Origin: an uncultured Pseudomonadota bacterium
GTDB taxonomy: Bacteria; Babelota; Babeliae; Babelales; RVW-14
NCBI GenBank assembly: GCA_964388745.1
Contig: CAYMBP010000004.1
Location: forward strand, 7,430-71,429
DNA: 64,000 bases
Direction: 5' to 3'
A program made the translations under genes and the position numbers. The notes under the pieces are model-generated. The model made no database searches and was not told the DNA's origin. It was given only the letters and a program-made list of their open reading frames with translations. This document shows, piece by piece, positions 20,842 to 41,732 of the stretch (its first letter is position 1; the number at the start of each line of letters is the position of its first letter).

Positions 20842-22083
20842 TTAGCTTGCAGTTGCTTCAGGAATAATAAGACCTGAAACTTTTTTTAAGAGCTTGCTGA
20901 CTTGGCTCCTTTTTTGAGACCACTCGGTTGGCATGTTATTGGCAAGTGTATTAAGTTGGACTTGTAATTTTTGTTTAATTTGAGCAAGTTCTTGATTATC
21001 TTTAGCAGTAGGATCTTTAAGATTATTGAGAGCTCTCTCTAGGCTATTTGATGAGGATTCTATATTTTTAACAAGGCGAGATTCTTCTTGTTCAAAGAGG
21101 GATTTAAGCTTTTTATTTTCAATAAGATGTATTCCGTCATTTATAAGCATTGTCATTACTCGAGTGGCTGTAGGCTGATTTGGAGCTAGTGAAAAACGCA
21201 CAAGGTAAGGGGTTGCTTTATTAAGCTGAGCAATAAGATTTTTGTTTTCTGCTGAAAAATATTTTTTTTCAGCTTCGGGAAGCTCGTTAAGTTGTCGCAC
21301 ATAGCTGGATAAGCCTGAGGCAAGGCTTTCAAATTTATTTTGACTTGGCCGTTGAAGTTCTTCATATGCCGTCAGTAAATCTTTTTCAGGAGATGAGCTT
21401 TTTGTCTTGGTACTGATAATAGCGATAATGGTTGATAGGTCGTGATTAAGCTTTTTTACTATTTGTTGCAGTTGGTTTTCTTTTATCTCTTTTTCATCAT
21501 TACTTTTACTCTTTTTATTCTTATTTTTTGAGGTATAGCCTGGTGATGAAGGAGTGGTATTTGTTTTTTTTGTTTGAGGGGTTTGAATATTTTTGTTTTT
21601 TGATTGAGATGATTGTTGAAGTGGTTGTTTATTGAAAGCAGAGGAGTGTTCCTGATAAGGGCTTCGGCCAAAACCTCGATTAGATGAAGAAGGGCGTCCA
21701 CCACCAAAGGGTGAGTAACTTCCATAGCTGCTACGACCATGTCCGTATGAAGAGCCATATCCGCGTCCATATGAAGGCCTTCGTCCACTGCTGCGATTTC
21801 CAACAGAAGCACCTCTACTTTTGAGTCCTCCAGCCCCTACACGTTTTTGTTTTTGAGCTGCACTATCTTCTTGTTGCTTGATTCGTTTTTTTTCCGCCTC
21901 TATCGCTTGTATTGTGATTTTATCATTGCGAAGAGCGCTAAGTCGGCTAGTAATTGAATTGAGAGGTTGTAGTGCTCGCTCTGTCTCTTGTTCATAGGCA
22001 CTTACTAAAGGCTTTTGTGGTTGAGGTGATAATGTATAAACTATCGTATTTGTCATAAGAGCGATAATAAAAAGTAATGACAT
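20842..22083 (-). CDS. hypothetical secreted protein with RGG/SYG low-complexity region
   Basis: 413 aa. N-terminal MSLLFIIALMTNTIVYTLS. Central GRRPSYGRGYGSSYGHGRSSYGSYSPFGGGRPSSSNRGFGRSPY, followed by a Q/S/K/N/T-rich tract and a helical C-terminal half. Confidence 0.55.
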   Translation of the reverse strand: MSLLFIIALMTNTIVYTLSPQPQKPLVSAYEQETERALQPLNSITSRLSALRNDKITIQAIEAEKKRIKQQEDSAAQKQKRVGAGGLKSRGASVGNRSSGRRPSYGRGYGSSYGHGRSSYGSYSPFGGGRPSSSNRGFGRSPYQEHSSAFNKQPLQQSSQSKNKNIQTPQTKKTNTTPSSPGYTSKNKNKKSKSNDEKEIKENQLQQIVKKLNHDLSTIIAIISTKTKSSSPEKDLLTAYEELQRPSQNKFESLASGLSSYVRQLNELPEAEKKYFSAENKNLIAQLNKATPYLVRFSLAPNQPTATRVMTMLINDGIHLIENKKLKSLFEQEESRLVKNIESSSNSLERALNNLKDPTAKDNQELAQIKQKLQVQLNTLANNMPTEWSQKRSQVSKLLKKVSGLIIPEATAS

Positions 22084-25406: not shown

Positions 25407-26633
25407 GTGAGTATGAAAATATTTTTACTATTTATATCATTAATTGGATTAATGCATAATCTTGCTTATACAATGAAAATAAAAAAAAGAATTCGCTGGG
25501 CTGATGAAATAGGCTATTATGAAGGAGATAATGTGGATTGTCCTCGTGATATAGAGGAGGTCATAACCAAGAATGAAAGGGCTCTAAATTCTTTAATCAA
25601 AAGTTATTTAAGAATTCGATTGATGTTACCAAGCATATGCTCTCTATTGCCTGATGATTATACAAAAAGCATTATAGGTAAAATTTTATATAATGACGAG
25701 CACAATGAAGAAAGCTTAGCTTATTGTAAAAAAGAGTGGCATTTAATGTATCAAAGAGCAGAAGGAGCTTTAATGTTCAATATGCTTACCAACCTTCAAG
25801 AGAAATATCAATTGACTGAGGAACTTAATCTCCAATTAAAAGATATTTACGGACAATTATCTTTGCTTAAAGAAAGTGTTGAATACACATGCAAAGCATT
25901 ATATGGTGATATGCCTTTTTATGAGGAAATTTATGAAGAAATTTATGAAGAGCATTCATTACTTAAGGCATATATAAGGGAAGTAAAATATCTTGTGTCA
26001 ACATATAAAGAAGATCCATGGAGTTATCTTAATAAAACAGATAAGGGTGCACAATTGGCATGTCATTATGCTCAGTATAAAAATAAAATAACAGGAGAAG
26101 GAATATCTAGTGGAGTATTTATTGGAAAAAAACTTTTTCCAATAACCGCTTCTGTGATTGCTGATATTCATGTTAAACATATTTTTGACGTACTTTTTGC
26201 CCCTTTTGAAGTAGAGTATTATGAAGGGCTAAGTGGATGCGGATATCGTAGTAAGTGGAAGTTTGATGAAAAATTTATAGAAAAACTTGAAATCATTGAA
26301 ATGTCAATTGATGATTTTACAAGTTATGCTCTTTTTTTTAAACAAATTTATTATATACTCCATGCAAGAAAAGACTCTTGTGAGCAATCGGAAAGGTTGC
26401 TATTATCATTTGATGCATTTTGGAAAAAAGTTTGTGATCTAGCGAATAATGTCGATTTTAGGCATTACAAGGAGCATTTTTCAGCTATAATAACATTCAA
26501 AAAAAAGATGCTCGAAGAAAAAAAGCTTATAGATGCTATTTTAGAAAAAGAAGAGCAAATTTATAGCAATATAAGGCCTGAAGAAAATTTTATAAAGGCT
26601 GTTTGGAGAGATGTTAAAGCCCTTGTTTTCTGA
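25407..26633 (+). CDS. hypothetical secreted protein
   Basis: 408 aa. The signal-like MKIFLLFISLIGLMHNLAYT starts at the ATG at 25413. Contains an EEIYEEIYEE tandem. No family motif recognised. Confidence 0.5.
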   Translation: MSMKIFLLFISLIGLMHNLAYTMKIKKRIRWADEIGYYEGDNVDCPRDIEEVITKNERALNSLIKSYLRIRLMLPSICSLLPDDYTKSIIGKILYNDEHNEESLAYCKKEWHLMYQRAEGALMFNMLTNLQEKYQLTEELNLQLKDIYGQLSLLKESVEYTCKALYGDMPFYEEIYEEIYEEHSLLKAYIREVKYLVSTYKEDPWSYLNKTDKGAQLACHYAQYKNKITGEGISSGVFIGKKLFPITASVIADIHVKHIFDVLFAPFEVEYYEGLSGCGYRSKWKFDEKFIEKLEIIEMSIDDFTSYALFFKQIYYILHARKDSCEQSERLLLSFDAFWKKVCDLANNVDFRHYKEHFSAIITFKKKMLEEKKLIDAILEKEEQIYSNIRPEENFIKAVWRDVKALVF

Positions 26634-27247: not shown

Positions 27248-28624
27248 ATGGCAGAGCCTACTGGTCAACTACGTGTATCATCTGTGCAGTCATCAACACC
27301 GTCGGTAACTGGTAGAGCAATGCCTGTAAGTATAGAGGCTGAAAAATCTGTACTTGCAGCTCTTTTATTAAATGATGACAACCTCACTCTTGTTGCAGAT
27401 TTTTTAAAACCTGTTGATTTTTCATTAAAATCGCATCAACTAATTTATCAAGCAATTCTTGATGTTGCTCAGCAGAGTCAAAAAGTTGATATTGTTGTAC
27501 TAAATGATTACTTTGAGCGGCAACAGCAAGTTGATGATATGGGAGGAGTGGGGTATCTTCTTGAGCTTCAAGAAGATATTCCTTCTGTTGGTCTTATTCA
27601 ACAACATGCAAAAATTGTTAAAGATAAAGCAATCTTGCGCCACTTAATTACTGCAGCTTCAGATATTATTGGTACTTGTTATGATAATAATATTGATGAA
27701 GTTGATGTTGTTCTTGACAAGGCTGAACAAAAAATATTTCAACTCGCGAGCAAGATAGCTCCACCATCATTTGTCCAGCTTAATGTTATTTTGAAGCAAG
27801 CTTTTCATAATCTTTCGCAAATGAAATCAACCCAGCAGGGTGTTACCGGTGTTTCAACAGGATTTGTGCAGTTTGATGAAATGACGTCAGGTATGCAAAA
27901 AAGTGATTTACTTATTTTAGCTGGCCGTCCATCAATGGGTAAAACTGCATTAGCTCTTAACATTGCTCTTAACTCATGGAGAAATGGTCATGCCGTTGGT
28001 ATTTTTTCTCTTGAAATGTCATCTGAGCAATTAGTGCTTCGTATGTTATCATCAGAGAGTTGCATTCCTTATCAAAAAATTCGGAATGCACAATTATCAT
28101 CTGAAGAATTTATGGAAATGACTGATACTGCAGCTCGACTAGCAGAAGCAAAAATATTTATAGATGATACGCCTTCATTAAATATTATGGAATTGCGAGC
28201 AAAAGCTCGTAAACTTAAGTCTCAAGTTGACCTTGAACTCATAGTTATTGATTACTTGCAGTTACTTAATTCACATCAGCGCCATGAAAATAGAACACAA
28301 GAAATTTCAGCTATCTCTCGTTCACTGAAGGCTCTTGCTAAAGAGCTTGATATTCCTGTGCTAGCCTTGTCTCAGTTATCTAGATCACTTGAAACGCGCA
28401 TGGATAAACGTCCTATGTTATCAGATCTTCGTGAATCTGGAGCGATAGAGCAAGATGGAGATGTTATATTTTTTGTTTATCGAGATGTGGTTTATAATCC
28501 AGATACAGAATATCCTGATCATGCAGAAATAATTATTGGCAAACAGAGAAATGGACCTGTTGGATCATTTCATGTTGGCTTTCATGGAGAAATTGCTCGA
28601 TTTGCTGATCTTCAAGGAGGATAA
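27248..28624 (+). CDS. dnaB: replicative DNA helicase DnaB
   Basis: 458 aa with PVSIEAEKSVLAALL, Walker A GRPSMGKTALALN, VIDYLQLL and QLSRSLE. Confidence 0.95.
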   Translation: MAEPTGQLRVSSVQSSTPSVTGRAMPVSIEAEKSVLAALLLNDDNLTLVADFLKPVDFSLKSHQLIYQAILDVAQQSQKVDIVVLNDYFERQQQVDDMGGVGYLLELQEDIPSVGLIQQHAKIVKDKAILRHLITAASDIIGTCYDNNIDEVDVVLDKAEQKIFQLASKIAPPSFVQLNVILKQAFHNLSQMKSTQQGVTGVSTGFVQFDEMTSGMQKSDLLILAGRPSMGKTALALNIALNSWRNGHAVGIFSLEMSSEQLVLRMLSSESCIPYQKIRNAQLSSEEFMEMTDTAARLAEAKIFIDDTPSLNIMELRAKARKLKSQVDLELIVIDYLQLLNSHQRHENRTQEISAISRSLKALAKELDIPVLALSQLSRSLETRMDKRPMLSDLRESGAIEQDGDVIFFVYRDVVYNPDTEYPDHAEIIIGKQRNGPVGSFHVGFHGEIARFADLQGG

Positions 28625-28647
28625 GCGTTAAAGAGGAAAGGATTGAA

Positions 28648-29154
28648 GTGAAAGAAGAGATTATTCTTGGAATTGACCCAGGATTTTCGGTAACAGGGTT
28701 TGGTGTTATTAAAAAAAATCATACAACAGCACAACTTAAAGATTGTGGTTATTTAAAAATGAAATCAACTGATAGCTTATCTAAGCGAATAGGGCAGTTT
28801 TATGATTTTTTTATTGAGAAAATTAAATTGCATGCAATAACAATGATAGCTTTAGAGACTCCATTTTTGGGAAAAAACACTCAGTCTTTTCTTAAGCTTG
28901 GCTATCTTCGAGGGATCTTATATTTGTTGGCAGAGCAGCATCAACTCTTATTATCCGAATTTGCCCCACGCCAGGTTAAAGCAGCCGTAACAGGTTCTGG
29001 TGCAGCAACAAAAGACCAAGTTGCCTTTATGGTCATGAGGCTTTTTCCTAAAGTTCAGGAATACAAAGCAGCTCAAAAACAAGACGTTACAGATGCTTTA
29101 GCTGTATCACTTTGTGGATTTTGGCATAGTCAGGCGCAACAACCGCGCGTATAA
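28648..29154 (+). CDS. ruvC: Holliday junction resolvase RuvC
   Basis: 168 aa with ILGIDPGFSVTGFGVI, ALETPFLGKN and the C-terminal DVTDALAVSLC. Confidence 0.9.
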   Translation: MKEEIILGIDPGFSVTGFGVIKKNHTTAQLKDCGYLKMKSTDSLSKRIGQFYDFFIEKIKLHAITMIALETPFLGKNTQSFLKLGYLRGILYLLAEQHQLLLSEFAPRQVKAAVTGSGAATKDQVAFMVMRLFPKVQEYKAAQKQDVTDALAVSLCGFWHSQAQQPRV

Positions 29155-29199
29155 AAAGAGAGAAGAGGTCTTTGATATGGTTTCTATTACGTTTTAAAT

Positions 29200-29662
29200 T
29201 TTTGATAATTTTTTGCTCCGATAATCGTTATTATGTAAACAATAGAGGGTAGGAATATTTTTAAAAGATTATTATAATGTTAAGAATAAAGACATTCGTG
29301 CCGTAGGCACGATAGGTTTCACAATACGCCTGACTCACTAATACTTATCAGTATTCCAGATCAACAGTCACAATAAAAAACAACAGAATTTACTTACGAT
29401 ACCATTTACATTACAAATTCAAACACAAAAACTCTCAATTAAAAGCAAAGACTTTACCCCTTATGCCCATGTTATTTATATTAATTTAACGATTACTGCA
29501 TCTGAACATCAACCAACCTCAAACCAATCGCACGTTAAATAACAAAATCAACAAAAATAACCTTCTCACGAAAAATAAAGAAAATAATCATAAAAAGAAA
29601 AGCTTTCGCTCCATCATCTAAGTTAAAAACTAAATACATATCGGAGCAAAAAATTATCAAAA
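29200..29662. repeat. 24-bp perfect inverted repeat bracketing a 415-bp non-coding, C>G-skewed segment
   Basis: 29200..29223 (TTTTGATAATTTTTTGCTCCGATA) is the exact reverse complement of 29639..29662. No ORF of 60 aa or more lies inside on either strand. The interior also has a perfect hairpin TCGTGCC-GTA-GGCACGA (29296..29312). Confidence 0.6.
29214..29241. other. candidate dif-like Xer recombination site
   Basis: TGCTCCGATAA-TCGTTA-TTATGTAAACA has the ATAA-N6-TTAT core. Its right arm matches the canonical XerD-arm TTATGT(T/A)AA. It overlaps the inner end of the left inverted-repeat arm. Confidence 0.3.
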
Positions 29663-29758
29663 GCTAATAAAAATAACAACTAAAAGACTCTTACTTTGTT
29701 AGTCAAATCTTATCGTTCACAGGACAGCAAGAACTTATCTATCAAATTTAAGGGTAAA

Positions 29759-30391
29759 TTATATCCAATAAATAACATTACCCAGCCTATCTCCTGTAGC
29801 AAAGCCTCTTCCATTAGGTGAAAATACAATTTTGGTAATATTTGTATGGTGGCCTTCAAGTATTTGATAATAATTTTCATTATCAAATACACCAATGAGT
29901 CCACTCTCAAATCCAACAATGAGTTGATTATTATTGGGGGAAAAAGCCATTGTACTTACTTTAGAGCCTTCTGGTATATCTATTTTCTTTCTGATTGTTA
30001 TATTGTTTTCAGTAATTAAAATATTATTTTTATATACAAAGGCACAAACTCCATTATTAATTATATTATCAATAAGACGAGGCTTTTTGTGTTGAGGGGG
30101 ATTACATGCACAAATCCATTTTCCACTGATTAAACAAAAAGTTTCCATTTCTATAGAATTAGTAACACGTATTTTTTGTGATTCAAGGAAAAATTCTATA
30201 TCAATAACAGGATCTTGATCAACTGTTGTGTGAGATGACTTAAATGTCGTACAATGTCGATATAATACGCTTTGCTCTTGTTTTCCTGAAGAGCTACACT
30301 TTATAGAGTCTAATAACTGATTTTTCATTGAATGAAGCAACAAAGCTGGCATAAAAGAAATAATAAGAAATAATAATAATTTCATTATCAA
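29759..30391 (-). CDS. secreted WD40-repeat-like mini-protein
   Basis: 210 aa. Signal-like MKLLLFLIISFMPALLLHS. The C-terminus KVSTMAFSPNNNQLIVGFESGLIGVFD...LEGHHTNITKIVFSPNGRGFATGDRLGNVIYW matches the WD40 GH...FSPdG...D..i..W pattern. Confidence 0.6.
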   Translation of the reverse strand: MIMKLLLFLIISFMPALLLHSMKNQLLDSIKCSSSGKQEQSVLYRHCTTFKSSHTTVDQDPVIDIEFFLESQKIRVTNSIEMETFCLISGKWICACNPPQHKKPRLIDNIINNGVCAFVYKNNILITENNITIRKKIDIPEGSKVSTMAFSPNNNQLIVGFESGLIGVFDNENYYQILEGHHTNITKIVFSPNGRGFATGDRLGNVIYWI

Positions 30392-30876
30392 ATTCCTTAT
30401 AAAATGTTAAAAATAAGTTCTTTTTATTAAGAAAATTGATTATATAAGTTGTTATCATGCAATATATTTTTTTTTTTAATCAAATAATTTATAAAGTTCT
30501 TTATTTTCAAAAGATATAATTGATAATTTTGTTATAAAGAAATTTGTTGATTAAAAAGTGTCTCTTAGGCTTGTTCAATTATTTGCTCAATAAGCTGAGC
30601 AACGAACATTACATATGCTAAGCACTGATCATTATTCATATTAATCACAGCATACTTGCTTAGTCCAAACTTTTCCTTTATAAGATAGCGCAAAAACTTT
30701 AGTTGTATTTTTTGCTCTATCTTCTTTGTCATTAGAATAGGACTCAAGAATGAAGCTTGATTTTTTATATCAATTGAGAGAAGATTTTAGCTTTTGCTCA
30801 AGTGCTTAATAAAGAAAACCACTCACAATAAAAAAGTAAATAAAAATAATTGTCAAGGTGTTGATTTCATTTTTCA

Positions 30877-30904
30877 TTGCAAGAGAAGTGGTTCGTGGTA
30901 TACT
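30877..30904 (+). promoter_or_regulatory. sigma70-type promoter for proS
   Basis: TTGCAA (30877..30882), 16-nt spacer, TATACT (30899..30904), with TGG immediately upstream (extended -10 like). It lies 57 nt before the proS ATG. Confidence 0.5.
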
Positions 30905-30960
30905 CTTTTCAATTATATTTGTTAGTTAGATTATACCTGAACTACTTGTAGAAAGCTGCT

Positions 30961-32394
30961 ATGAAAAAACTTCCATCAATAAAAGATGACTTTGCTCAAT
31001 GGTATCAAGAGGTGCTTATCCAAGCTGAACTTATTGATCAATCTGAAACACGTGGATGCTTTGTTATTAGGCCTTATGGATATTCACTTTGGGAAAATAT
31101 TGTTAAAGAACTTGATGAGCGCATTAAATCCGAAGGTGCCTTAAACGCGTATTTTCCTCTTCTTTTGCCCGAATCCTTTTTAACCAAAGAGGCTGAGCAT
31201 GTAGAAGGTTTTGCACCCGAGCTTGCAGTCGTAACACATGGTGGAGGGAAAAAACTTGAAGAACCGCTTGTTGTCAGGCCAACTTCTGAGACAATGTTTT
31301 ACAGTATGTTTGCCCGCTGGATTAAATCTTGGCGTGACTTACCTATGAAGATTAATCAATGGGCAAATGTTGTTCGATGGGAAATGAGAACTCGCCCTTT
31401 TTTAAGAACTCTTGAGTTTTTATGGCAAGAGGGCCATACAGCTCATGCAACGCATGAAGAGGCTGTTAAAACTGCTGAAAAAATGCTTTCTCACTACAAA
31501 ACACTTTATGAAGATTATTTAGCAATACCTGTTTTTTCAGGGATAAAATCAGATTCAGAACGATTTGCAGGAGCTGAGCGAACTTACACAATTGAAGGAA
31601 TTATGCCTGATGGTAAAGCCTTACAAATGTGCACTTCTCATGTACTCTCACATAGCTTTCCTCAATCATTTGGTATTAAGTTTCAAAATAAAGATGGTGT
31701 GGAAGAAGTCCCTTTTTGTACAAGTTGGGGATTCACTACACGAGCAATTGGTGCATTAGTAATGGTTCATGGTGATGAAAAAGGACTTATTATCCCTCCC
31801 AAAATTGCCCCAATAAAAGCAGCAATTGTTCCCATATTTAAAACAGAAGAAGAAAAAAATATTGTTTTTGAATCTGCTGAAAAAATAAAAAAATTACTTA
31901 GTAAGTCATATAGCGATGTCATTATTGATACAAGTGATAATAAGTCTCCTGGAGCCAAATTTTATCACTGGGAGTTGAGAGGAGTTCCTCTTCGAATTGA
32001 AATTGGTCCTCGTGATGCTGCTGCTGGTAATGTTGTATTAGTTGATCGTGCAGAACAAGACAAAGAAAAGAAAAAGAAAATAATACCAATGAGTCAGCTT
32101 GAAGCTGCGTACACATCAACCCTAACGGCTATACAGCACAAATTATTCAAACAGGCACAAGAAAAAATTGCTCAACACATGCATAAAGAGAGAGAGTTAA
32201 ATACATTTGCACAAAAGCTTGAAAATGAAAATGGACTATATCATGTTGGATGGTGTAAAAAAACATCATGCGAGGCACTTCTTAAAAAATATAAAGGCAC
32301 TATTCGCTGCTTACTAGATAAGAAGGAAATGATAAAGTGCTTTGCTTGTGGAGAAAAAAGTCAGGCAGATATTTTTGTTGCAAAAGCATACTAG
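30961..32394 (+). CDS. proS: prolyl-tRNA synthetase, archaeal/eukaryote-like (no insertion-domain) type
   Basis: 477 aa. N-terminal FAQWYQEVLIQAELID...RGCFVIRPYGYSLWE. C-terminal Cys-containing domain (CKKTSCE...CFACGEK) ending in a terminal Tyr, as in the Thermus/archaeal-type enzyme. Confidence 0.95.
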   Translation: MKKLPSIKDDFAQWYQEVLIQAELIDQSETRGCFVIRPYGYSLWENIVKELDERIKSEGALNAYFPLLLPESFLTKEAEHVEGFAPELAVVTHGGGKKLEEPLVVRPTSETMFYSMFARWIKSWRDLPMKINQWANVVRWEMRTRPFLRTLEFLWQEGHTAHATHEEAVKTAEKMLSHYKTLYEDYLAIPVFSGIKSDSERFAGAERTYTIEGIMPDGKALQMCTSHVLSHSFPQSFGIKFQNKDGVEEVPFCTSWGFTTRAIGALVMVHGDEKGLIIPPKIAPIKAAIVPIFKTEEEKNIVFESAEKIKKLLSKSYSDVIIDTSDNKSPGAKFYHWELRGVPLRIEIGPRDAAAGNVVLVDRAEQDKEKKKKIIPMSQLEAAYTSTLTAIQHKLFKQAQEKIAQHMHKERELNTFAQKLENENGLYHVGWCKKTSCEALLKKYKGTIRCLLDKKEMIKCFACGEKSQADIFVAKAY

Positions 32395-32485
32395 AGCGGT
32401 CAGAGCTTCAGTATTCTAGTTTCTTAGTCATTATTTTTGTATTCTATTGCCTGTTAATTATCCTGAAAGCATCGTGATACAATCT

Positions 32486-32516
32486 ATCGGCGCCACACGA
32501 ACAATAGGGCGCCGAT
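32486..32516 (+). other. GC-rich hairpin between proS and xerD
   Basis: 9-bp stem ATCGGCGCC (32486..32494) / GGCGCCGAT (32508..32516) with a 13-nt loop. No U-tract follows on either strand. Confidence 0.4.
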
Positions 32517-32565
32517 CTTAAAAAGCAGACAATCCCTATAAGTTTAATTATAAAAGGAGAGCATC

Positions 32566-33477
32566 ATGACGAATGAAGAATATGTAGTTCAATTTCATAC
32601 TTATTTATTAACAGAAAAGCGAGTCTCAAAGAATACGCTTGATGCTTATAATCGAGATATTCAGCAATTTGTTATCTATTGTCAAGAACATGAGCTAGAG
32701 TTTAACACTCTGAAAAAAAATGATTTAACAAAATTTCTTGCTTTTCATAAAAGAAGTGGAATTAAATCTCGCAGCATTGCACGAAAGATATCTTCACTTA
32801 AACAACTATTTGCTTATCTGCATGAAAATTATCAAATAGAAAACATTGCAAGCCTACTCTCAACACCTAAAATAGAACAACACTTGCCCACTTATTTAAC
32901 AGAACAAGAAGTTCAAAAATTACTTATTGCAGCACAAAAAGATATAACTCCAAAAGGAGTCCGTGATAAAGTTATGCTCTACCTTTTATATGCATCTGGA
33001 CTTCGTGTCTCAGAACTTGTTGAATTAACGGTTAATCAAATTCGCTTTGATACAGGATTTGTACAACTTATGGGCAAAGGAAAAAAAGAGAGACATGTGC
33101 CACTGCCTCGTAATATGATTGATCTTTTACGTCATTACTGTGATACGATCAGGCCGGAGTTTACTAAAAGTTTTCAGGAATCTCCTGATCACATGTATCT
33201 CTTTCCTGTTATATATCGCAAAAGTATTAAGCCAATCTCGCGACAACTTTTTTGGCTTTCACTCAAAAAATTATTGGCACAAGCTCAATTATTTAAAAAT
33301 GTCTCTCCCCACACTCTACGACATTCGCTTGCAACTCATTTACTAAAAAATGGAGCAGACATTAGATCACTTCAAATGCTTTTGGGACATGAAAGTCTTG
33401 CAACCATTCAGATTTACACCCACCTAGATAAAAGCGATATCAGAAAAGTATACGACAAAAAACATCCAAGAGCATAA
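32566..33477 (+). CDS. xerD: tyrosine site-specific recombinase XerD
   Basis: 303 aa with NTLDAYNRDIQQF, ASGLRVSELVELT, HTLRHSLATHLLKNGADIRSLQMLLGHESLATIQIYTH and a C-terminal ...KKHPRA like E. coli XerD. Confidence 0.85.
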   Translation: MTNEEYVVQFHTYLLTEKRVSKNTLDAYNRDIQQFVIYCQEHELEFNTLKKNDLTKFLAFHKRSGIKSRSIARKISSLKQLFAYLHENYQIENIASLLSTPKIEQHLPTYLTEQEVQKLLIAAQKDITPKGVRDKVMLYLLYASGLRVSELVELTVNQIRFDTGFVQLMGKGKKERHVPLPRNMIDLLRHYCDTIRPEFTKSFQESPDHMYLFPVIYRKSIKPISRQLFWLSLKKLLAQAQLFKNVSPHTLRHSLATHLLKNGADIRSLQMLLGHESLATIQIYTHLDKSDIRKVYDKKHPRA

Positions 33478-34581
33478 CTATTGCTTGTTAAGATAAACTC
33501 GCTGAGCCGTAACAGCATCAAGAATAGGTGTATTAATTGGACAAGTAAGAAAAACTTGAAATTGTAATGAATTAATTAAATTAAGGCACGAGCCAATACG
33601 CTGTGCATCAAAATCTGTTACAAAATCATCAAGAAGTAAAACGCCAGCCTCTCCTGTACTATTTGTCTCTTGAATTTGGGCAATTTTTAAGAGAAAAGTT
33701 AATAATTTTTGCTGACCACGAGACGCAAAAATGCGTGCCTTTTTATGCTCAAAAAGCAAGATAAAGTCATCAAGGTGGGCCCCAAAAAGAGTTCTTCCAT
33801 AACGCAACTCTTGCTCTAAGTTACGATTACTCCATCTACTCCAAAAAACATCAAAATCACTTTCATCCTTCATGCCTTTTTTTTGATATTGAGTACTAAA
33901 GCTTTGTTCATCAAATCCAGGAAAATAATCACTCAGCAATAAACTAATTCTTTTTTCAAGTGAATCAAGGTAATGACATCTCAATTTTTGAAGCTCGAAA
34001 GAAGCTTCCCATAATTTGTTGCTCCACAAATACATTTCTTTATGAAAATAACTATCCCTTAGACTAGATTGGCCACGATGAATAAGTGCATTACGATGAG
34101 CAAGTATTTGCTTATACTCTTTGAATGTAGCCAAAATTGATGGATCAATTAAAAATAAGGAATAATTTAAGAAATCACGTCGATATTCAGGAGCCCCACT
34201 TACCAATTCACTATCTTGGGCACAGAGCGTAACAATGCGATGCTGATTGATTAATTCTTTATATGAGGAAATTTGCTTGCCATTGAGAAGAACCTGCTTC
34301 CCTGTTTTTTGTGAAAAACCAGCCTTAATACTCTCATCAATATCGTGAGAAGTATTGTTGGCCTGAATTTCAATAAAAAAATGGTCTCCATCAATCTTAA
34401 CAAGATCTCGATTCAGATGAGTACGAAACGAGCGAAGATAACAGCTATAATGAATAGCTTCCAGCAAAGAGCTTTTACCTGAGCCATTATCTCCTTGAAT
34501 AATGATACATCGCTCACTAAAGGAAAACAACGCATCATCAAAACATCTAAAATTTTTAAGTCGAACTGAGTTAATAATCAC
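33478..34581 (-). CDS. recF: DNA replication and repair protein RecF
   Basis: 367 aa with VRLKNFRCF and Walker A GDNGSGKSSLLEAI. Lies directly downstream of dnaN. Confidence 0.9.
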   Translation of the reverse strand: MIINSVRLKNFRCFDDALFSFSERCIIIQGDNGSGKSSLLEAIHYSCYLRSFRTHLNRDLVKIDGDHFFIEIQANNTSHDIDESIKAGFSQKTGKQVLLNGKQISSYKELINQHRIVTLCAQDSELVSGAPEYRRDFLNYSLFLIDPSILATFKEYKQILAHRNALIHRGQSSLRDSYFHKEMYLWSNKLWEASFELQKLRCHYLDSLEKRISLLLSDYFPGFDEQSFSTQYQKKGMKDESDFDVFWSRWSNRNLEQELRYGRTLFGAHLDDFILLFEHKKARIFASRGQQKLLTFLLKIAQIQETNSTGEAGVLLLDDFVTDFDAQRIGSCLNLINSLQFQVFLTCPINTPILDAVTAQRVYLNKQ

Positions 34582-34589
34582 GTAACTAA

Positions 34590-35711
34590 TTAATTCGGGC
34601 TACTCATTGAAATGGGCATAACCAAGTAGGTAAAATGATAATCTTCTGTTTCAGTCTCAAAAATAATAGGTTTAGCACCACTTTTGATATAAAAATTTAC
34701 TTGCTCATCGGGAAAAACATGAAGTCCATTAAGCAAATAAGGAGAATAAAATCGACTTTCTACAGGATCTGCTTCATATGCCTCAAGCGCAATGTTTTCT
34801 TCGAGCTTTCCTACATCTTTATTATATAGCTTAACATTCATGATTCCTGGTGAAAACGTAAAGCTTGTTGAAACAAATTGCCCAGAAAGTAAGCAGCCTG
34901 TCCGCTTAAGTGTCTTGACAAACGGATCCCGGGCTAGTCGAGCTGGAACAAAATCTTTTTTGTCCATAACAGCTTCATATTGAGGAAAAGCATCTGCAAT
35001 GAGCTTGGTAAAGAAATTAAAATGTTCGCCCGAAAAAACAAGCTGGTTGCCACACATTCCAAGAAAAATTGGAACTGAAGGATTACTCTCAACAAGTTTT
35101 TTTACTTCCATGACTGCTCGCTTTGGAATGAGCCACTTCTTATTTTCATTAAGGGAATATTGTGATGACTCAATTTTGGCAAGACAATGGCCATCAGTTG
35201 CCACCATAGACATTTTTTCTTCATTAACTTCTAACAACATACCATTAAGTGCATTGTTCGCATTATTTTGAGGAATAAGAAATGCAACTTTATTGAGCAA
35301 TTTAAGTAAACCTGCACCTTCAATTCCCATCATATTTTCAATTCGCTCTGGAAAGGGAGGAAAATCTGATGAATCCTTAATGTTCAAAGCAAGGTCAACA
35401 CCATTTGAAGAGAGGTGAAGTTGACTATCTTTAAGGCTAAACAATATCTCACCATCCATCTCTTTGACAATATCAAATATACGCTTTCCCGGAATAAGAA
35501 AACTTGTTGTCTCATTTGAATTGCTTTCAATAGCCATTGTTGACTGCAAACTAATCTCAAGATCTGTTGCCTTAAGAGTAAGCTCTCGTGGTGTAATTTG
35601 AAATAGAACAGTCTCTGTTACCGAAAGCGTTGTACGTTTATTACAAATGGGTTGCATTGAGGAAAGCAAAGTAAGAAGCTCTTTCTGCTTTGTAGTAAAA
35701 GTTACATTCAT
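34590..35711 (-). CDS. dnaN: DNA polymerase III beta sliding clamp
   Basis: 373 aa. The N-terminal region ...LTLKATDLEISL is typical of beta clamps. dnaN-recF synteny. Confidence 0.9.
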   Translation of the reverse strand: MNVTFTTKQKELLTLLSSMQPICNKRTTLSVTETVLFQITPRELTLKATDLEISLQSTMAIESNSNETTSFLIPGKRIFDIVKEMDGEILFSLKDSQLHLSSNGVDLALNIKDSSDFPPFPERIENMMGIEGAGLLKLLNKVAFLIPQNNANNALNGMLLEVNEEKMSMVATDGHCLAKIESSQYSLNENKKWLIPKRAVMEVKKLVESNPSVPIFLGMCGNQLVFSGEHFNFFTKLIADAFPQYEAVMDKKDFVPARLARDPFVKTLKRTGCLLSGQFVSTSFTFSPGIMNVKLYNKDVGKLEENIALEAYEADPVESRFYSPYLLNGLHVFPDEQVNFYIKSGAKPIIFETETEDYHFTYLVMPISMSSPN

Positions 35712-35903
35712 AATACGTTATGATGCCTCGTTAAAAGGTGGAAAATACGAACAAGCTACGACAGCAAAGTGTATCATGATCAGACATAAAATTAAAGCAT
35801 TATCACAATAGATAACCATACTTTTTTCTATCTGTTTATTAACCCTTTGTACGTTACAATATTTTATACTTATATAATTTACACAATCTTAAAAAGATAA
35901 TCA

Positions 35904-35931
35904 TTGACTTTCAATAATTAGTCGTTATAAT
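35904..35931 (+). promoter_or_regulatory. near-consensus sigma70 promoter with no ORF downstream
   Basis: TTGACT (35904..35909), 16-nt spacer, TATAAT (35926..35931). The next + strand ORF is more than 600 nt away. The first terminator downstream is at 36174..36207. Confidence 0.5.
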
Positions 35932-36093
35932 TTGTAGACATTTTCATATTTCAATGGTTTTACCAACTTTTCAATACTGTATCATTTATATAATTTTGAA
36001 AAAATCAGGTTATCATACTCAATCATTAATATAAAAATTATATTAGAATAATTTTCTTGAAATGCACGATAAATAAAAGATTTTAAAAAAAAT

Positions 36094-36553: not shown

Positions 36554-38251
36554 ATGAATCTCTATGTCAAAAGCATAATTCAGTTCTTTTTATCTTTTAC
36601 AATGTTCGCTCATAGCCTTCTTCAAGCAAATAATCTATCTGTTCAGGTAGTGCAAAAATCTCAAAAAAAGAACCAGATCCCTTATCAAGCAAAGCTTTTT
36701 TTACTGTCTCAAGGGCTTGAAAGAGACGAAGATATAAGACAGATAGAGACAATTGATAAATATGCACCATTACCAATTTCTTCTTATCTTAAAAATGCTT
36801 CATTTGAAGGAAAGTATGAGCAAATAGCTCAAGTTCCCCTTGTCGTCAATGGGGAGATTATTAACCACATCTTTATTGGTTTAGGAAAGCCTGCAAAAAA
36901 TATAGATGACTCTTGTGAATATCTTAGGCGATCCATAGCCTCGGTTATGCCTCTTGTTAAAAATCTTAAAATAGCCCATCTACTGGTAGAAATTCCACGA
37001 TATCTTGAAGAAATTTGTAAGCGGACTTATGAGGAGTTAGTTCGAGAGTGCAGCTTAGCAACTCTCATGCATGATTATAGTTATGACGAATTTAGACAAT
37101 CAAAAAAAAATGATAACGATTTTCATCCAATTATTACATTTCTTATACCAGAGAATAAAGAGATGGAGTTTGTTGAAAAAGCATGCAAAGAAGCTAGTAT
37201 TATTGCAAGCTCATTAAATGAAGCTCGATGTTGGATGGATGGTCCAGCCAACAAGGTGACACCTACCTTCATGGCAGAGCAAGCAAAAAAAATTGCAGCA
37301 AGAAATGAGAATCTTGTTTGCCATATTCTTGAAGAATCTGATGCAAAAAATCTTGGGATGGGGGCTTTTCTTGCTGTAAGTAAAGGATCATCACAATCTG
37401 GAAAAATTGTTATTCTTGAATACAAAAGTGACAGCCCACATGCTCAAACAATTGCCCTATGTGGTAAAGGAATTACGTATGACACAGGAGGGGTTTCACT
37501 TAAAACTCCTGGAGCTATGCTTGGCATGAAGTATGACATGTGTGGTGGTGCGTCTGTTTTAGCGATTATGAATCTTGTTGCTCAATTTAAGCCACATTGC
37601 AATGTTATTGGCATTGTCCCATTTGCTGAAAATATGCCAGATGGCAATGCGTATCGTGAAGATGATATTTTAACAGCCATGAACGGCAAAACAATTGAAG
37701 TAATCACAACGGACGCAGAAGGTAGGCTTGTTTTAGCAGATGCTTTATGTTATGCAGAAAAGGTATATCATCCGGATATTATAATTGATATTGCTACACT
37801 AACAGGAGCTTGCCCTAATGCTGTTGGTCGTTTTTATACAGCCTTCATGACAAAAGACTCTGACCTCATGCAATTACTTCAATTCTATGGGTATAAAACA
37901 GGGGACCGCATGTGGCCACTTCCATTTCATGATGATTATAAAAAAGCTAATAAATCTGATATTGCCGATGTAAAGAATAAGGGATCTTATCAATATCAGG
38001 CTTATTGCATTGAGGCTGGAAAATTTCTTGAAAACTTTGTTGAAAATGCTCGGTGGGCACATCTTGATATTGCAGGATCTGGATGGAGTGCCCCTGGTAT
38101 TAATTATTTAGGTAATGGAGCAACTGGGGCGGGCATAAGAACTATTTTATATGTTATTATGAATTACAGCGCTCAAGCTCGCTTATATAAAGAAATCAAT
38201 GAATTTCATTACTCACAGGCAAAGGAGAAAGAAGCTGCTCTTGCGGCTTAA
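36554..38251 (+). CDS. pepA: M17 leucyl aminopeptidase with N-terminal signal-like segment, paralog 1
   Basis: 565 aa with GKGITYDTGGVSLK and TTDAEGRLVLADAL (variant of the NTDAEGRL signature). N-terminal IIQFFLSFTMFAHSLLQA. Confidence 0.9.
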   Translation: MNLYVKSIIQFFLSFTMFAHSLLQANNLSVQVVQKSQKKNQIPYQAKLFLLSQGLERDEDIRQIETIDKYAPLPISSYLKNASFEGKYEQIAQVPLVVNGEIINHIFIGLGKPAKNIDDSCEYLRRSIASVMPLVKNLKIAHLLVEIPRYLEEICKRTYEELVRECSLATLMHDYSYDEFRQSKKNDNDFHPIITFLIPENKEMEFVEKACKEASIIASSLNEARCWMDGPANKVTPTFMAEQAKKIAARNENLVCHILEESDAKNLGMGAFLAVSKGSSQSGKIVILEYKSDSPHAQTIALCGKGITYDTGGVSLKTPGAMLGMKYDMCGGASVLAIMNLVAQFKPHCNVIGIVPFAENMPDGNAYREDDILTAMNGKTIEVITTDAEGRLVLADALCYAEKVYHPDIIIDIATLTGACPNAVGRFYTAFMTKDSDLMQLLQFYGYKTGDRMWPLPFHDDYKKANKSDIADVKNKGSYQYQAYCIEAGKFLENFVENARWAHLDIAGSGWSAPGINYLGNGATGAGIRTILYVIMNYSAQARLYKEINEFHYSQAKEKEAALAA

Positions 38252-38327: not shown

Positions 38328-39971
38328 ATGAACAAGCATTTTTGCTTAATAGTTTTTCTATTTCTTTTTCCTGGAGTAATACCTTTTAGCAATGGCAAGG
38401 CTGCACCATTTAATGAAAATCATCTCTTCTTGGAAGTTAAAGAGTGTCAACAGCTCCCAGTTACTCACCATATTTCCTATGAAGCAAAGCTATTTTTAAT
38501 GAGTGAAGGATTTAAATATGCAGATGATGCTCAAACGATTGAAGAAATTAATGCATATTCTTCAACCCCGATAGAAGAATATTTTAAAATAAAGAACTTT
38601 GAAGGAAAATATGAGCAGGTAATCGAAATTCCTTTAAATGTTGATGGTAAGTTGATTGATCATATTTTTGTTGGGCTTGGAAAACCAAACACCTATCCTG
38701 ATACAGCATGTGAGTATTTTCGTCGATCATTTTCATCAGTTATTCCTCTTATGAAAAAAAACAAAATAATAGACCTTGCAACTTGTTTGCCAAAATTCTT
38801 AGAAAAATGGTGTAACCGATCATATGCAGATCTTATTTATGAAGCGGGCCTTGCAGCACTTCTCCACTATTATGATTATGATGACTATAAAAGCGAAAAA
38901 AATAGGCATAATGCTTCTATCACATTTTGTCTTTCTGAAGAAGATTTTGAGTATCAAAGAGAGGCTGAGCAATCTTCTATAATTGCAACAACAGTTGCGC
39001 ATTCAATGAACGCAGCAAGGAATTGGATGGATGGTCCAGCAAATTTAGTTACACCTTTATTTATGGCACAACAAGCTGAAATGATTGCGAAAAAACATGA
39101 TAACTTAACATATCGGGTTCTGAATGAAGAAAGTGCTACAAAGCTTGGAATGGGAGCTTTTATGGGTGTATCACAGGGCTCTTCAAATCCTGGCAATATT
39201 GTCATTCTTGAATATTATTGTGATGATGATGCACCAACAATTGGGTTATGTGGTAAAGGAATTACATATGATACTGGTGGCGTTTCACTCAAACCACCGA
39301 GTGCTATGCTTGGCATGAAATATGACATGTGCGGTGGCGCATCTGTTTTGGCTATTATGGACCTTGTTGCCCAGTTTAAACCACATTGTAATGTTATTGG
39401 CATAGCCCCATTTGCTGAAAATATGCCAGACGGTAAATCTTACCGAGAAGATGATATTTTAACAGCTATGAACGGAAAAACAATCGAAATTATTAACACA
39501 GATGCTGAAGGCCGATTAGCTCTAGCCGATGCATTATGCTACCTTGAACAAGAATATAGACCTGACGTAATTTTTACTATTGCAACACTAACAGGAGCAT
39601 GCTTACATGCAGTTGGTCATGAATACACAGCCTTTATGACTCAAGACACAGAGCTCTTGCAACTTCTACAACGATATGGAAATAGAACAGGAGATAAAAT
39701 GTGGCCACTGCCATTTCATGATGACTATATGAAAGCCAATCACTCAAGCGTTGCTGATGTTGCTAATGCTGGTTCAAAAAAATATCAAGCTGGCAGCATT
39801 GTTGCTGGAAAATTTCTTCAAAATTTTATTGAAAATGCACGCTGGGCACATCTTGATATAGCCGGTGCTGCATGGGGCTCAACTGATATAAATTACGTAG
39901 GACAAGGAGCAACAGGAGCGAGTATCAGAACGCTTATTCATGTAATTATGGATTTCAGTCAATATAATTAG
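38328..39971 (+). CDS. pepA: M17 leucyl aminopeptidase with N-terminal signal-like segment, paralog 2
   Basis: 547 aa with GKGITYDTGGVSLK and NTDAEGRLALADAL (exact M17 signature). N-terminal FCLIVFLFLFPGVIPFSNG. Collinear with paralog 1 over its whole length. Confidence 0.9.
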   Translation: MNKHFCLIVFLFLFPGVIPFSNGKAAPFNENHLFLEVKECQQLPVTHHISYEAKLFLMSEGFKYADDAQTIEEINAYSSTPIEEYFKIKNFEGKYEQVIEIPLNVDGKLIDHIFVGLGKPNTYPDTACEYFRRSFSSVIPLMKKNKIIDLATCLPKFLEKWCNRSYADLIYEAGLAALLHYYDYDDYKSEKNRHNASITFCLSEEDFEYQREAEQSSIIATTVAHSMNAARNWMDGPANLVTPLFMAQQAEMIAKKHDNLTYRVLNEESATKLGMGAFMGVSQGSSNPGNIVILEYYCDDDAPTIGLCGKGITYDTGGVSLKPPSAMLGMKYDMCGGASVLAIMDLVAQFKPHCNVIGIAPFAENMPDGKSYREDDILTAMNGKTIEIINTDAEGRLALADALCYLEQEYRPDVIFTIATLTGACLHAVGHEYTAFMTQDTELLQLLQRYGNRTGDKMWPLPFHDDYMKANHSSVADVANAGSKKYQAGSIVAGKFLQNFIENARWAHLDIAGAAWGSTDINYVGQGATGASIRTLIHVIMDFSQYN

Positions 39972-40117: not shown

Positions 40118-41623
40118 TTAAAGGAAATCATCAGAACTCTGCGGAAAAAGCATGGTGCTCATCTGCTCAATGCGCAAGCGAATATCTCTAAAATTGGGAT
40201 TGCTATAATATTGTTCTGCAACATTTATTGCAATGATTAAGTTTTCTTGAGCTTGTGGAATATTGCCTCGATCAAGACTCTCTTGTGTAGCAGCTAGCTC
40301 ATTAATAACAATTGCCATCTGAAAAGAAACAAGAGGGCTCTCTATAAAAAGCATTTGGGTAATACCCTGAATTAGATGAAAATACCTTTCATAAGAATTA
40401 TTAAGTGAGTCAATAAATATAATGTTTTGTTCTCTTTTTTGTGCAATAAGAGAGACCCAGTGACCTGGAGTATTTGCAATAACACAGATCTGACTTGAAG
40501 CTTCGTCACGAAACTGTTGCATGCCTTGAGCATCTTCATCACTGAAGGCAAAAGCTGCTGATCGCTCAAAGGCATCCTGTTCAAGAATATAAATGTTGGC
40601 AAGTTTATTATCTGAACGAAATTGAAGAGCATTCTCATTAACACCAAGTACTTTTAAGTAAGGACGTACTTGCTCTATATTTTCACGTGACATTAATCTT
40701 TCAATTTCATCCCTTACTAAATGGTCAAAGGTTCCATTTGAACGATGTTGTTGTATATTGTTTTTCCATATATTAATAACTTCAGAAAAAGCTTCTGGGT
40801 GTTGGGCGGTGTTCTTTATCAACTCTCCAGAGGGGTCCGCTTGAATAAGAATACCATTTATTAAGGCAAAGTAACCACAATCTAGTCCTGACTGTGGTTG
40901 ACTGAAAATTTGTTGAACATTAAGCGCGATATTGTTCTCAAGATCATTTTTACTATTTATATTAATTACACCACAAGCAGCTACTCTACCTGTTCGAGAT
41001 GATGTCATATAACAATATCCTTTGTATGCAAAATAAGTTCCGATCCCTAAACCAATAACAGAGGGAACAATCGGAAACTCTATCATAAGCTCCTTGGGCC
41101 AATGCCATATATAATCAAAAAATGATTCCTTAAATCCCATATCTTTATAACAAAGAGGAAAGACTGTTGATTGCATAATTTCTATAAGGGTACGAAGGTA
41201 AATAATTGAAGGACTTGGTGAATAACTGTTAGATAACTCTTGAAGAATTTTTTTACATCTTTTTTCAAAAATTCTTATCTGGTGTGGTAGTGCTAGATGC
41301 TTCTTTTGATTTAATGAATAAAAAAGCTTGCCATATAAACGAATACCTTGATCTACATAAGGATTTTTTGATTTGCTAATGAGCAAATCCATTGAGTTAG
41401 TAAGCTCTAAACCTTGATCAAGTAGTGCTATATCTCTATTATAATCTTCATCTTCATATTCTTTTTTTAAATGTTTTTCCAAATAAATTGAAGCCCTGAG
41501 CTCAGAAAACATTTTTTTTAAAGAAAGGGTTGCAAGATCAAAAGTAGGTGTCGCACTTATAATTGTGACAGATAACAACGAAACAACAAACATTGTCACA
41601 AAAATTATTTTTATTGATTTCAT
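40118..41623 (-). CDS. secreted/membrane papain-fold cysteine protease-like protein, Josephin-like motif order
   Basis: 501 aa with an N-terminal signal-like segment and one internal TM. Has QSGLDCGYFALINGIL (Gln at -5, then Cys). About 139 residues later comes GHWVSLIAQKREQNIIFIDSLNN, comparable to the ataxin-3 Josephin motifs QEGSLCAQHCLNN and HWFTVRKLGKQWFNLNSL. Confidence 0.45.
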   Translation of the reverse strand: MKSIKIIFVTMFVVSLLSVTIISATPTFDLATLSLKKMFSELRASIYLEKHLKKEYEDEDYNRDIALLDQGLELTNSMDLLISKSKNPYVDQGIRLYGKLFYSLNQKKHLALPHQIRIFEKRCKKILQELSNSYSPSPSIIYLRTLIEIMQSTVFPLCYKDMGFKESFFDYIWHWPKELMIEFPIVPSVIGLGIGTYFAYKGYCYMTSSRTGRVAACGVININSKNDLENNIALNVQQIFSQPQSGLDCGYFALINGILIQADPSGELIKNTAQHPEAFSEVINIWKNNIQQHRSNGTFDHLVRDEIERLMSRENIEQVRPYLKVLGVNENALQFRSDNKLANIYILEQDAFERSAAFAFSDEDAQGMQQFRDEASSQICVIANTPGHWVSLIAQKREQNIIFIDSLNNSYERYFHLIQGITQMLFIESPLVSFQMAIVINELAATQESLDRGNIPQAQENLIIAINVAEQYYSNPNFRDIRLRIEQMSTMLFPQSSDDFL

Positions 41624-41732
41624 AGATTCTTCCTGTTATGTAAAATAGTAGAAACAGATAAAGTATAGCTTTTTTTGCAACACCATTCAAACATAGACAA
41701 ATATTAAATATTTAAAAAAAGATCATTATTTT

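Follow-up and report, generated by a model that had tools for sequence, protein, structure and literature searches.

A putative exported and circularly permuted CE-clan ubiquitin or ubiquitin-like protease of a Babeliales bacterium

An orphan gene of an uncultured, amoeba-associated Babeliales bacterium raises the question of which protease clan its product belongs to, and on what such an enzyme would act. The gene occupies positions 40118..41623 of the reverse strand in a 64,000-nucleotide stretch of contig CAYMBP010000004.1 (hereafter the window, meaning the whole of the DNA analysed), and a preliminary description, made from the letters, had taken its product (P0001) for a cysteine protease of the Josephin type. 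We propose instead that P0001 is, with reasonable probability, an exported, circularly permuted isopeptidase of the CE clan with a putative activity on ubiquitin (Ub) or ubiquitin-like (Ubl) modifiers. Judged from sequence comparisons, its catalytic domain (residues ~212-430) is most likely homologous to the CE clan, that is, to Ulp1/SENP, RickCE, the ChlaDUB-type enzymes and Peptidase_C48. The elements on which the argument turns are the following.

40118..41623, minus strand: whole gene, 501 codons and a TAA stop, product P0001 (from the list of open reading frames)
40334..40990, minus strand: predicted catalytic domain, residues 212-430 (AlphaFold model, Pfam C48, PDB profile matches and the hhalign permutation scan)
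40856..40894, minus strand: Gln/Cys box QSGLDCGYFALIN, residues 244-256, with the C249 codon at 40877-40879
40400..40465, minus strand: His/Asp box GHWVSLIAQKREQNIIFIDSLN, residues 387-408, with the H388 codon at 40460-40462 and the D405 codon at 40409-40411

The motifs from which the Josephin assignment had been drawn are all present in the translation: QSGLDCGYFALINGIL, from residue 244, supplies Q244 and C249 (Gln at -5), and GHWVSLIAQKREQNIIFIDSLNN, from residue 387, supplies H388, W389 and D405, with the order Gln-Cys-His-Asp and the spacings (139 residues from Cys to His, 17 from His to Asp) just as described. The gene had also been called an orphan, and rightly: a word-index search of 5.8 billion proteins returned P0001 as the sole match to itself, and its cluster is a singleton among ~15 billion proteins. 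An exhaustive HMMER scan of 1.84 billion cluster representatives nevertheless recovered four true homologues, namely P0002 (35% identical to P0001 over its full length, E 6e-60) and the weaker P0003, P0007 and P0008; the other matches of that scan were repeat proteins and were rejected as spurious. A sixth member is the tandem paralogue that adjoins P0008 (L082, 6240-7436). P0007 and P0008 also lie on bacterial contigs, and the family thus consists of six sequences, all from uncultured bacteria and each a singleton among the ~15 billion. Further searches brought no member beyond these six: an exact look-up of P0001 in the contig index gave no record, the word-index search with the native family profile returned P0007 only and with the re-ordered profile (described below) no match, the alignment of P0001 and P0002 against genome contigs gave no further member, viral contigs scanned with P0008 and with the family profile yielded none, and a metagenome scan found the P0008 locus only. 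At 18-35% identity, C249, G250, N256, I307, H388, W389, D405, S406 and N408 are invariant in all six sequences, the Gln at Cys-5 is kept in five, and Cys249 precedes His388 in every one; because of this invariance, the alignment indicates that the motifs form the conserved core of a genuine, though very rare, family. In the contig of the sixth member (L082, SDBT01000419.1, from a metagenome-assembled genome [MAG]), the two permuted-protease paralogues stand in tandem at 6240-7436 and 7509-8948 (both plus strand), and they adjoin two paralogous signal-bearing orphans (8974-9927 and 9942-10928, both minus strand), a leucine-rich repeat protein and two HtrA-type proteases.

The affinity of this core is indicated by profile searches. 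Peptidase_C48 (Ulp1, PF02902) is the only meaningful Pfam match of P0001, at 21.0-23.1 bits against a cut-off of 20.7, and for the full-length protein the match runs over residues 380-421 (profile positions 87-133) and takes in the His/Asp box only; P0007 in its native order scores 25.1 bits and also has a precomputed PF02902 match. CE enzymes carry their catalytic residues in the order His-Asp-Gln-Cys. In P0001 there is no cysteine after H388, and the segment QPQSGLDCGYF, upstream of the His, resembles the CE Gln/Cys box; a circular permutation was suspected for these two reasons. Searched against all PDB sequences, the family profile had its best match in RickCE (5ham, E 2e-4), and this match consists of two pieces in swapped order, with query residues 115-217 aligned to RickCE 77-192 (His/Asp) and residues 23-49 to RickCE 202-226 (Gln/Cys); the ULP-domain chain 7fiu gave the same two-piece swapped pattern.

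For comparison in the CE order, the domains were cut after the second helix past the Cys (residue 296 in P0001) and rejoined, residues 297-430 coming before 212-296. This re-ordering lifts the Pfam C48 score from 23.1 to 26.3 bits for P0001, from 25.1 to 29.8 for P0007 and from none to 14.9 for P0008, and it lengthens the C48 alignment from profile positions 86-131 to 86-177/192, so that it runs through the Gln/Cys box. The re-ordered family profile is colinear with SENP1 (VHW, DSM, QQMNGSDCGMF) and Ulp1 over residues 18-190, across His, Asp, Gln and Cys; it matches RickCE at up to 27.3 bits (E 3e-5), and seven of its eight PDB matches belong to the CE clan (the native-order profile was run against the PDB as the control).

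Profile-to-profile alignment with hhalign gives a similar picture. The CE profile used here was made of RickCE 77-226 and three Megaira homologues recovered by tblastn with the RickCE segment. Against it, the native family profile aligns in two blocks of swapped order, the Gln/Cys block with the following 'PEA' helix scoring 30.9 (P 9e-4) and the His/Asp block 26.3 (P 5e-3); the 100 column-shuffled nulls lie at 12.4 +/- 2.1 and reach 17.9 at most, reversing the alignment gives 15.0, and the ubiquitin-specific protease (USP) of the window, a Cys-first CA-clan deubiquitinase (DUB) that served as the negative control, scores 17.1 (P 0.17). When circular cut points were scanned every 15 columns of the family alignment, all cuts between the Cys helix and the His strand produced a single colinear alignment with a score of 44.8-44.9 and a probability of 86%; native-like cuts scored ~31. 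The Gln/Cys box aligns with the catalytic Q...CG box of RickCE/Megaira, SENP1 and Pfam C48, and the His, Asp, Gln and Cys of the family align with the catalytic residues of RickCE/Megaira, SENP1 and Ulp1. No trace of an ancestral tandem duplication was seen by hhalign, neither a degenerate His/Asp half at the N-terminus nor a Gln/Cys half in the C-terminal bundle (all P > 0.3). RickCE-like CE domains (NNSHW...NDSFG...HQQNDGSSCGAF) are also found on Candidatus Megaera polyxenophila plasmids (L085-L087), where they have a signal peptide directly before them and an autotransporter beta-barrel after them, in proteins annotated merely as 'membrane protein' or 'autotransporter domain-containing protein'.

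The predicted structure can be read in the same way. An AlphaFold2 model of residues 210-501, built from a five-sequence alignment, has a mean predicted local distance difference test (pLDDT) of 82 and a predicted template modelling score (pTM) of 0.76. In it, a long beta-hairpin (214-240) leads into Q244, and C249 opens a helix (helix 40-53 of the model) that is followed by four more; next is a strand, then a helix and a run of three strands, of which the second starts with H388 and the third ends with D405, and finally one helix and a three-helix C-terminal bundle. As modelled, this is the CE arrangement read from another starting point: hairpin, Gln, Cys helix and terminal helix, then helical subdomain, His/Asp sheet and helix. 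Among the top 50 Foldseek matches in the PDB, 11 are CE-clan proteases (SENP1, 2, 3, 5, 8, PopP2 and poxvirus I7L) and the CA clan is represented by no protease, although Foldseek should find a colinear CA fold with ease. In the BFVD collection the best viral match was a Hyperionvirus fragment annotated 'putative amidoligase' (A0A3G5ADB8_2, E 1e-3, probability 0.99, TM 0.40 over 357 columns), followed by a Hokovirus protein (E 0.016); judging from these models, giant viruses of protists may carry a colinear relative of the family.

A number of results weigh against the proposal. The scores are modest throughout (29.8 bits at best in Pfam, 27.3 bits at best for a profile against the PDB, and an hhalign probability of 86% and not >95%), and P0002 and P0003, taken alone, have no Pfam C48 match in native or re-ordered form. 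Foldseek found nothing significant in the PDB (best E 0.06, TM-scores ~0.2), weak scores being expected because a sequential aligner faces a permutation, and AlphaFold gave the artificially re-ordered domain a pLDDT of 45, from an alignment with misaligned tails, a model that is void as a test and does not count as a negative result. Residues 179-204 and the K/R residues that follow could be read as a stop-transfer signal, which would leave the protease domain of P0001-P0003 in the bacterial cytoplasm, and on this the topology is ambiguous. Further, CE enzymes include acetyltransferases, so that protease activity is not guaranteed (PMC4961225, PMC7391069).

The Josephin assignment fares far worse. 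A Josephin-like (MJD, MEROPS C86) deubiquitinase would have the same linear order, Gln(-5)-Cys...His-Trp...Asp/Asn-Ser, and a similar distance from His to the acid (17 residues in P0001, 15 in ataxin-3), yet the traits in question, the order Gln, Cys, His, Asp and an aromatic residue after the His, are non-discriminating, being common to several DUB classes. The HW...(D/N)S pattern is a generic 'aromatic gatekeeper' feature of most DUB classes, common to P0001 and the Josephins (PMC7391069), and its likeness is for that reason no evidence of membership. At E <= 10, PF02099 matched neither the full protein nor any of the five native and five re-ordered domains, and three family profiles found no ataxin-3 or JOSD chain among PDB sequences; Josephins, which would be colinear with the model, are absent from the top 50 Foldseek matches, and both catalytic blocks match the CE clan (Ulp1/SENP/RickCE) instead. 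At the level of sequence the Josephin reading is effectively refuted, and we regard it as extremely improbable. Other DUB families were also rejected: the OTU family (PF02338, including the permuted EschOTU/EmcB) gave no Pfam, PDB sequence or Foldseek match and the acid lies at His+17, not at His+2, and UCH/USP had no support from profiles, PDB sequences or Foldseek.

Three further readings differ from ours in ancestry, chemistry or location. The family might be an independent, natively Cys-first lineage of the CA clan, for instance one distantly related to C39 or a DUB class not yet described, with its likeness to CE enzymes due to convergence or deep ancestry. Its threading is indeed CA-like, the scores are modest and no Foldseek match is significant, and since the CE clan is regarded as a permuted papain fold, some likeness of motifs across the clans is expected (PMC7391069, PMC7396840). 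We nonetheless hold such a lineage to be unlikely, as each half stands >6 standard deviations over the shuffled null against the CE profile, the two become colinear only after permutation, and the match takes in N256 (Cys+7) and the 'PEA' helix that follows the Cys helix, beyond the catalytic residues themselves; moreover, Pfam and PDB sequence searches returned no CA-clan family at E <= 10, Foldseek retrieved no CA fold in spite of its colinearity, and the USP control was negative. The family could have come to its present order by a secondary 'back-permutation' or be a relic of the pre-permutation state, the relic being less likely; that it is a surviving lineage with ancestral Cys-first threading and CE-type motifs, from a form similar to which the His-first CE topology arose, is a view to which we give little credence.

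As to chemistry, acetyl transfer uses the same CE triad, ChlaDUB1 carries out both reactions (PMC4961225, PMC7391069), and PopP2 is among the weak Foldseek matches; still, a CE-type acetyltransferase (YopJ/LegCE-like) or dual-activity enzyme seems very unlikely, given that the best sequence relatives (RickCE, SENP1 and Ulp1) are isopeptidases, that RickCE takes Ub and NEDD8 probes (PMC4961225), that Pfam YopJ (PF03421) has no match, and that the invariant Trp that follows the His is in keeping with a protease directed at Gly-Gly, although this motif alone is not decisive (compare lpg1949). The enzyme might also be a bacterial membrane protein that works in the cytoplasm or periplasm on bacterial substrates: for P0001-P0003 the signal-like N-terminus, the internal segment and the K/R after it predict an out-in topology, and the gene lies among housekeeping genes at a conserved position. 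This is improbable in our judgement, because the internal segment is only marginally hydrophobic in two of the three orthologues and P0007, P0008 and the L082 paralogue lack it; besides, those bacterial CE enzymes that have been characterised act as effectors on the host (PMC4961225), the genes around this one evolve far more slowly, and the genome has other eukaryote-directed genes (the USP, a RING-like reading frame and ankyrin proteins).

If P0001 is indeed an exported, permuted CE-type isopeptidase, its hairpin/Gln/Cys-helix module would come first and its helical subdomain and His/Asp strands second, the reverse of the CE order. C249, H388 and D405 would make up the triad, Q244 would sit at the oxyanion hole, and W389 would act as a gatekeeper that restricts the P2 position to glycine; because of this restriction, cleavage would be expected after the Gly-Gly C-terminus of host ubiquitin or of a ubiquitin-like modifier, and such a target is the most likely one. 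The linker made by closing the old termini (~residues 262-300) might contribute to the S1 site. In ChlaDUB1 the C-terminus fills the space of the N-terminal variable region VR-1 (PMC4961225), and since it does so, the canonical CE termini would be close together and their closure sterically plausible. The enzyme would be exported through Sec and would take Ub, NEDD8 or SUMO-type marks off host proteins during intracellular growth in a protist. RickCE, the nearest relative with a solved structure, reacts with Ub and NEDD8 probes, and most bacterial CE DUBs prefer K63 chains (PMC4961225).

The remaining parts of the gene and protein bear on expression and topology.

41662..41690, minus strand: sigma-70-like promoter match, TTGAAT, a 17 nt spacer and TATACT (consensus scan)
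41629..41634, minus strand: Shine-Dalgarno-like AGGAAG, 5 nt upstream of the ATG, read from the sequence
41552..41623, minus strand: signal-peptide-like segment, residues 1-24 (MKSIK, a hydrophobic core and ISA/T, the stroke marking the predicted cleavage)
41090..41551, minus strand: N-terminal domain, residues 25-178, defined by alignments (blocks PHQIR, DMG and FFDYxWHxPKE)
41012..41089, minus strand: moderately hydrophobic segment, residues 179-204, a possible membrane anchor (hydropathy)
40121..40333, minus strand: C-terminal helical bundle, residues 431-501, three helices, accessory (secondary structure of the model)

The promoter match sits in a 109-bp divergent intergenic region common to the protease gene and gmk, where the count of such matches equals the shuffled expectation and so constitutes weak evidence for a promoter. 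Of the two membrane-related features in the preliminary description, the signal-like N-terminus stands, with a Kyte-Doolittle value of 2.5 over residues 6-24, and the internal transmembrane segment proves only marginal (1.47 over residues 179-197). Signal cleavage at ISA/T is inferred from the -3/-1 rule. A signal-like N-terminal segment is present in all six members of the family; the internal hydrophobic segment, whose hydropathy at this position is 1.27 in P0002 and 1.98 in P0003, is missing from P0007, P0008 and the L082 paralogue, in which the catalytic domain comes directly after the signal segment (P0008 has a C-terminal anchor). Residues 179-204 would thus possibly hold the protein in the membrane in the P0001-P0003 orthologue group, and we read the sequences, with limited confidence, as pointing to export of the domain across the family. 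A precedent for Sec-dependent export of a CE domain is given by the Megaira CE proteins, in which a CE domain is combined with a Sec signal and an autotransporter. The domain of residues 25-178 is common to P0001, P0002 and P0003 only, and has no Pfam match and no hhalign similarity to the catalytic halves; the bundle of residues 431-501 is conserved between P0001 and P0002 and is likewise dissimilar to the catalytic halves in hhalign. An inverted repeat with a 10-bp stem (AACCACAgtcaggactagatTGTGGTT, 40873-40899, minus strand) falls exactly on the QPQSGLDCGY codons of the catalytic Cys box; a scan flagged it as terminator-like, a role that was rejected, as it lies within coding sequence with no gene end after it and is probably coincidental.

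The host of this gene is a Babeliales (Dependentiae) bacterium, as its best RecA match among 185,579 species genomes is that of a Candidatus Babeliales MAG (74% identity). Dependentiae are obligate intracellular parasites of protists. The genes neighbouring the protease are bacterial housekeeping genes, among them two M17 aminopeptidases, gmk, an EamA transporter, dnaN, recF, a Xer-type recombinase, proS, recA and RNase Y; these and the genes with eukaryote-directed features elsewhere in the window include the following.

14504-15868, minus strand: USP (PF00443, E 2e-36)
15819-16913, minus strand: RING-like orphan reading frame (residues 303-357, at the C-terminus; best E 2e-3, all RING models below the Pfam cut-offs)
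36554-38251 and 38328-39971, plus strand: tandem M17 leucyl-aminopeptidase paralogues (each E ~1e-111)
57786-60092, plus strand, and 60753-61661, minus strand: ankyrin-repeat proteins, the larger with a signal-like N-terminus

The RING-like frame lies directly upstream of the USP gene with an overlap of ~50 nt, both products begin with a hydrophobic stretch, and the two may constitute an E3 (ubiquitin ligase)/DUB gene pair. It had been suggested that the window encodes three different ubiquitin-pathway folds, of which the USP is sound (PF00443, E 2e-36), the RING is sub-threshold only (E 2e-3) and the third is kept as a candidate cysteine protease of the ubiquitin system, though not as a Josephin. 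Hydrophobic N-terminal segments are found in the USP, the ankyrin proteins and most orphan reading frames of the window; examples of signal-like frames with no Pfam match are 10091-11341, 20842-22083, 25407-26633 and 53515-54855, and they are typical of effector-like repertoires in Dependentiae. In the cultured Chromulinavorax, signal peptides occur on 44% of coding sequences and on 78% of ankyrin proteins, and for Dependentiae it has been proposed that host-directed proteins leave through Sec (PMC6561590).

The gene order around the protease is partly preserved elsewhere. The orthologue P0003 has the same position beside EamA and a divergent gmk, with proS, the recombinase, recF and dnaN nearby. 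Between that genome and the window, ProRS is 67% and Gmk 42% identical and the protease only ~25-30%, a pattern typical of what is expected of a fast-evolving host-interaction gene, and it is read in this way because the protease diverges far faster than its ProRS and Gmk neighbours. In a related genome seen in two Logan assemblies (L083, SRR33465438, and L084, SRR33465417), the protease gene is flanked by gmk and proS, and EamA, the recombinase, recF and dnaN are close at hand; compared with the window, this block has undergone inversion or rearrangement, ankyrin genes are interspersed, and the two M17 genes are lacking. In the window, the second M17 protein has a clear signal-like N-terminus (hydropathy 1.95) and the first a weaker one, under the 1.5 cut-off used; the M17 family is normally cytosolic, which makes a signal-like start unusual. 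The cumulative GC skew peaks at ~30-32 kb (region ~28000-36000), with positive values on its left side and negative ones on its right, and the peak adjoins dnaB (27248-28624), the Xer-type recombinase (32566-33477) and recF with dnaN (33478-35711). A skew maximum usually marks the terminus, and dnaN with recF usually the origin.

If the proposal is correct, the CE fold tolerates the reverse permutation in nature, and the family offers a test case for the rebuilding of the Ub-binding variable region VR-1, the site where the canonical termini meet. It would also mean that motif-order searches miss such deubiquitinases in the effector sets of uncultured protist parasites, and P0001 would be the first ubiquitin-like-protease candidate for Dependentiae, the 64-kb window also holding a bona fide USP.

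How the family relates to known systems may be summarised by likeness and difference. With the Josephins (ataxin-3, JOSD1/2; PF02099) it has in common the Gln-Cys-His-(Asn/Asp) order, the Trp after the catalytic His and the likely character of a ubiquitin-directed papain-type protease; it differs in having no detectable sequence or structural similarity to them and in that both of its blocks match CE profiles. Peptidases of the C39 family (bacteriocin Gly-Gly leader peptidases) have a Q...DCG motif that opens a helix, a later His and an Asp ~16 residues on, and they cleave after Gly-Gly. They were rejected as relatives: at E <= 10 there was no PF03412 match in Pfam and no C39 chain among PDB sequences, and none occurs among the Foldseek matches despite the expected colinearity.

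The closest known system is the CE clan (PF02902, MEROPS C48/C79; Ulp1, SENP1/2/8, RickCE, ChlaDUB1 and Salmonella SseL). The likeness extends to a G-H-W on a strand, a D-S ending the next strand, a Q-x-x-G-x-x-C-G-[FY]...N that opens a helix, the aromatic gatekeeper, a beta-hairpin before the Gln/Cys and a helical subdomain before the sheet; the bacterial members are secreted effectors of intracellular bacteria, those of the Megaira/RickCE type having a Sec signal and an autotransporter. In P0001, by contrast, the order is Gln-Cys...His-Asp, and the new termini separate the post-Asp helix from the hairpin. P0001 also has further parts, namely a signal peptide, an N-terminal domain of 150 aa, a hydrophobic segment and a C-terminal helical bundle; the similarity in sequence is marginal, and the family is tiny. 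MEROPS divides CE from CA largely by His-first versus Cys-first order, and the two clans are thought to be linked by an ancient circular permutation (PMC7396840, PMC7391069). Because Cys249 here precedes His388, where a CE member has His before Cys, the P0001 family is by its sequence like a CE-clan Ub/Ubl protease, yet not a canonical member; no report of a Cys-first CE-type enzyme was found in the searchable literature.

Permutation of a comparable kind is known from the OTU proteases EschOTU (PMC7396840) and Coxiella EmcB/CoxDUB (PMC12501173), which are naturally permuted and kept their activity on engineered re-permutation; since OTUs of this type did so, the permutation proposed for P0001 is mechanistically plausible. 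They resemble the P0001 family in combining a DUB-type papain fold with a host-associated bacterial origin and a catalytic helix that permutation has shifted to the opposite end of the domain, and they differ in the position of the acid (His+2 in OTUs, His+17 and on the following strand in P0001) and in having no sequence similarity to it. In those OTUs a Cys-first CA order has become His-first; the P0001 family would be their mirror image, in which a CE-like His-first order has become Cys-first.

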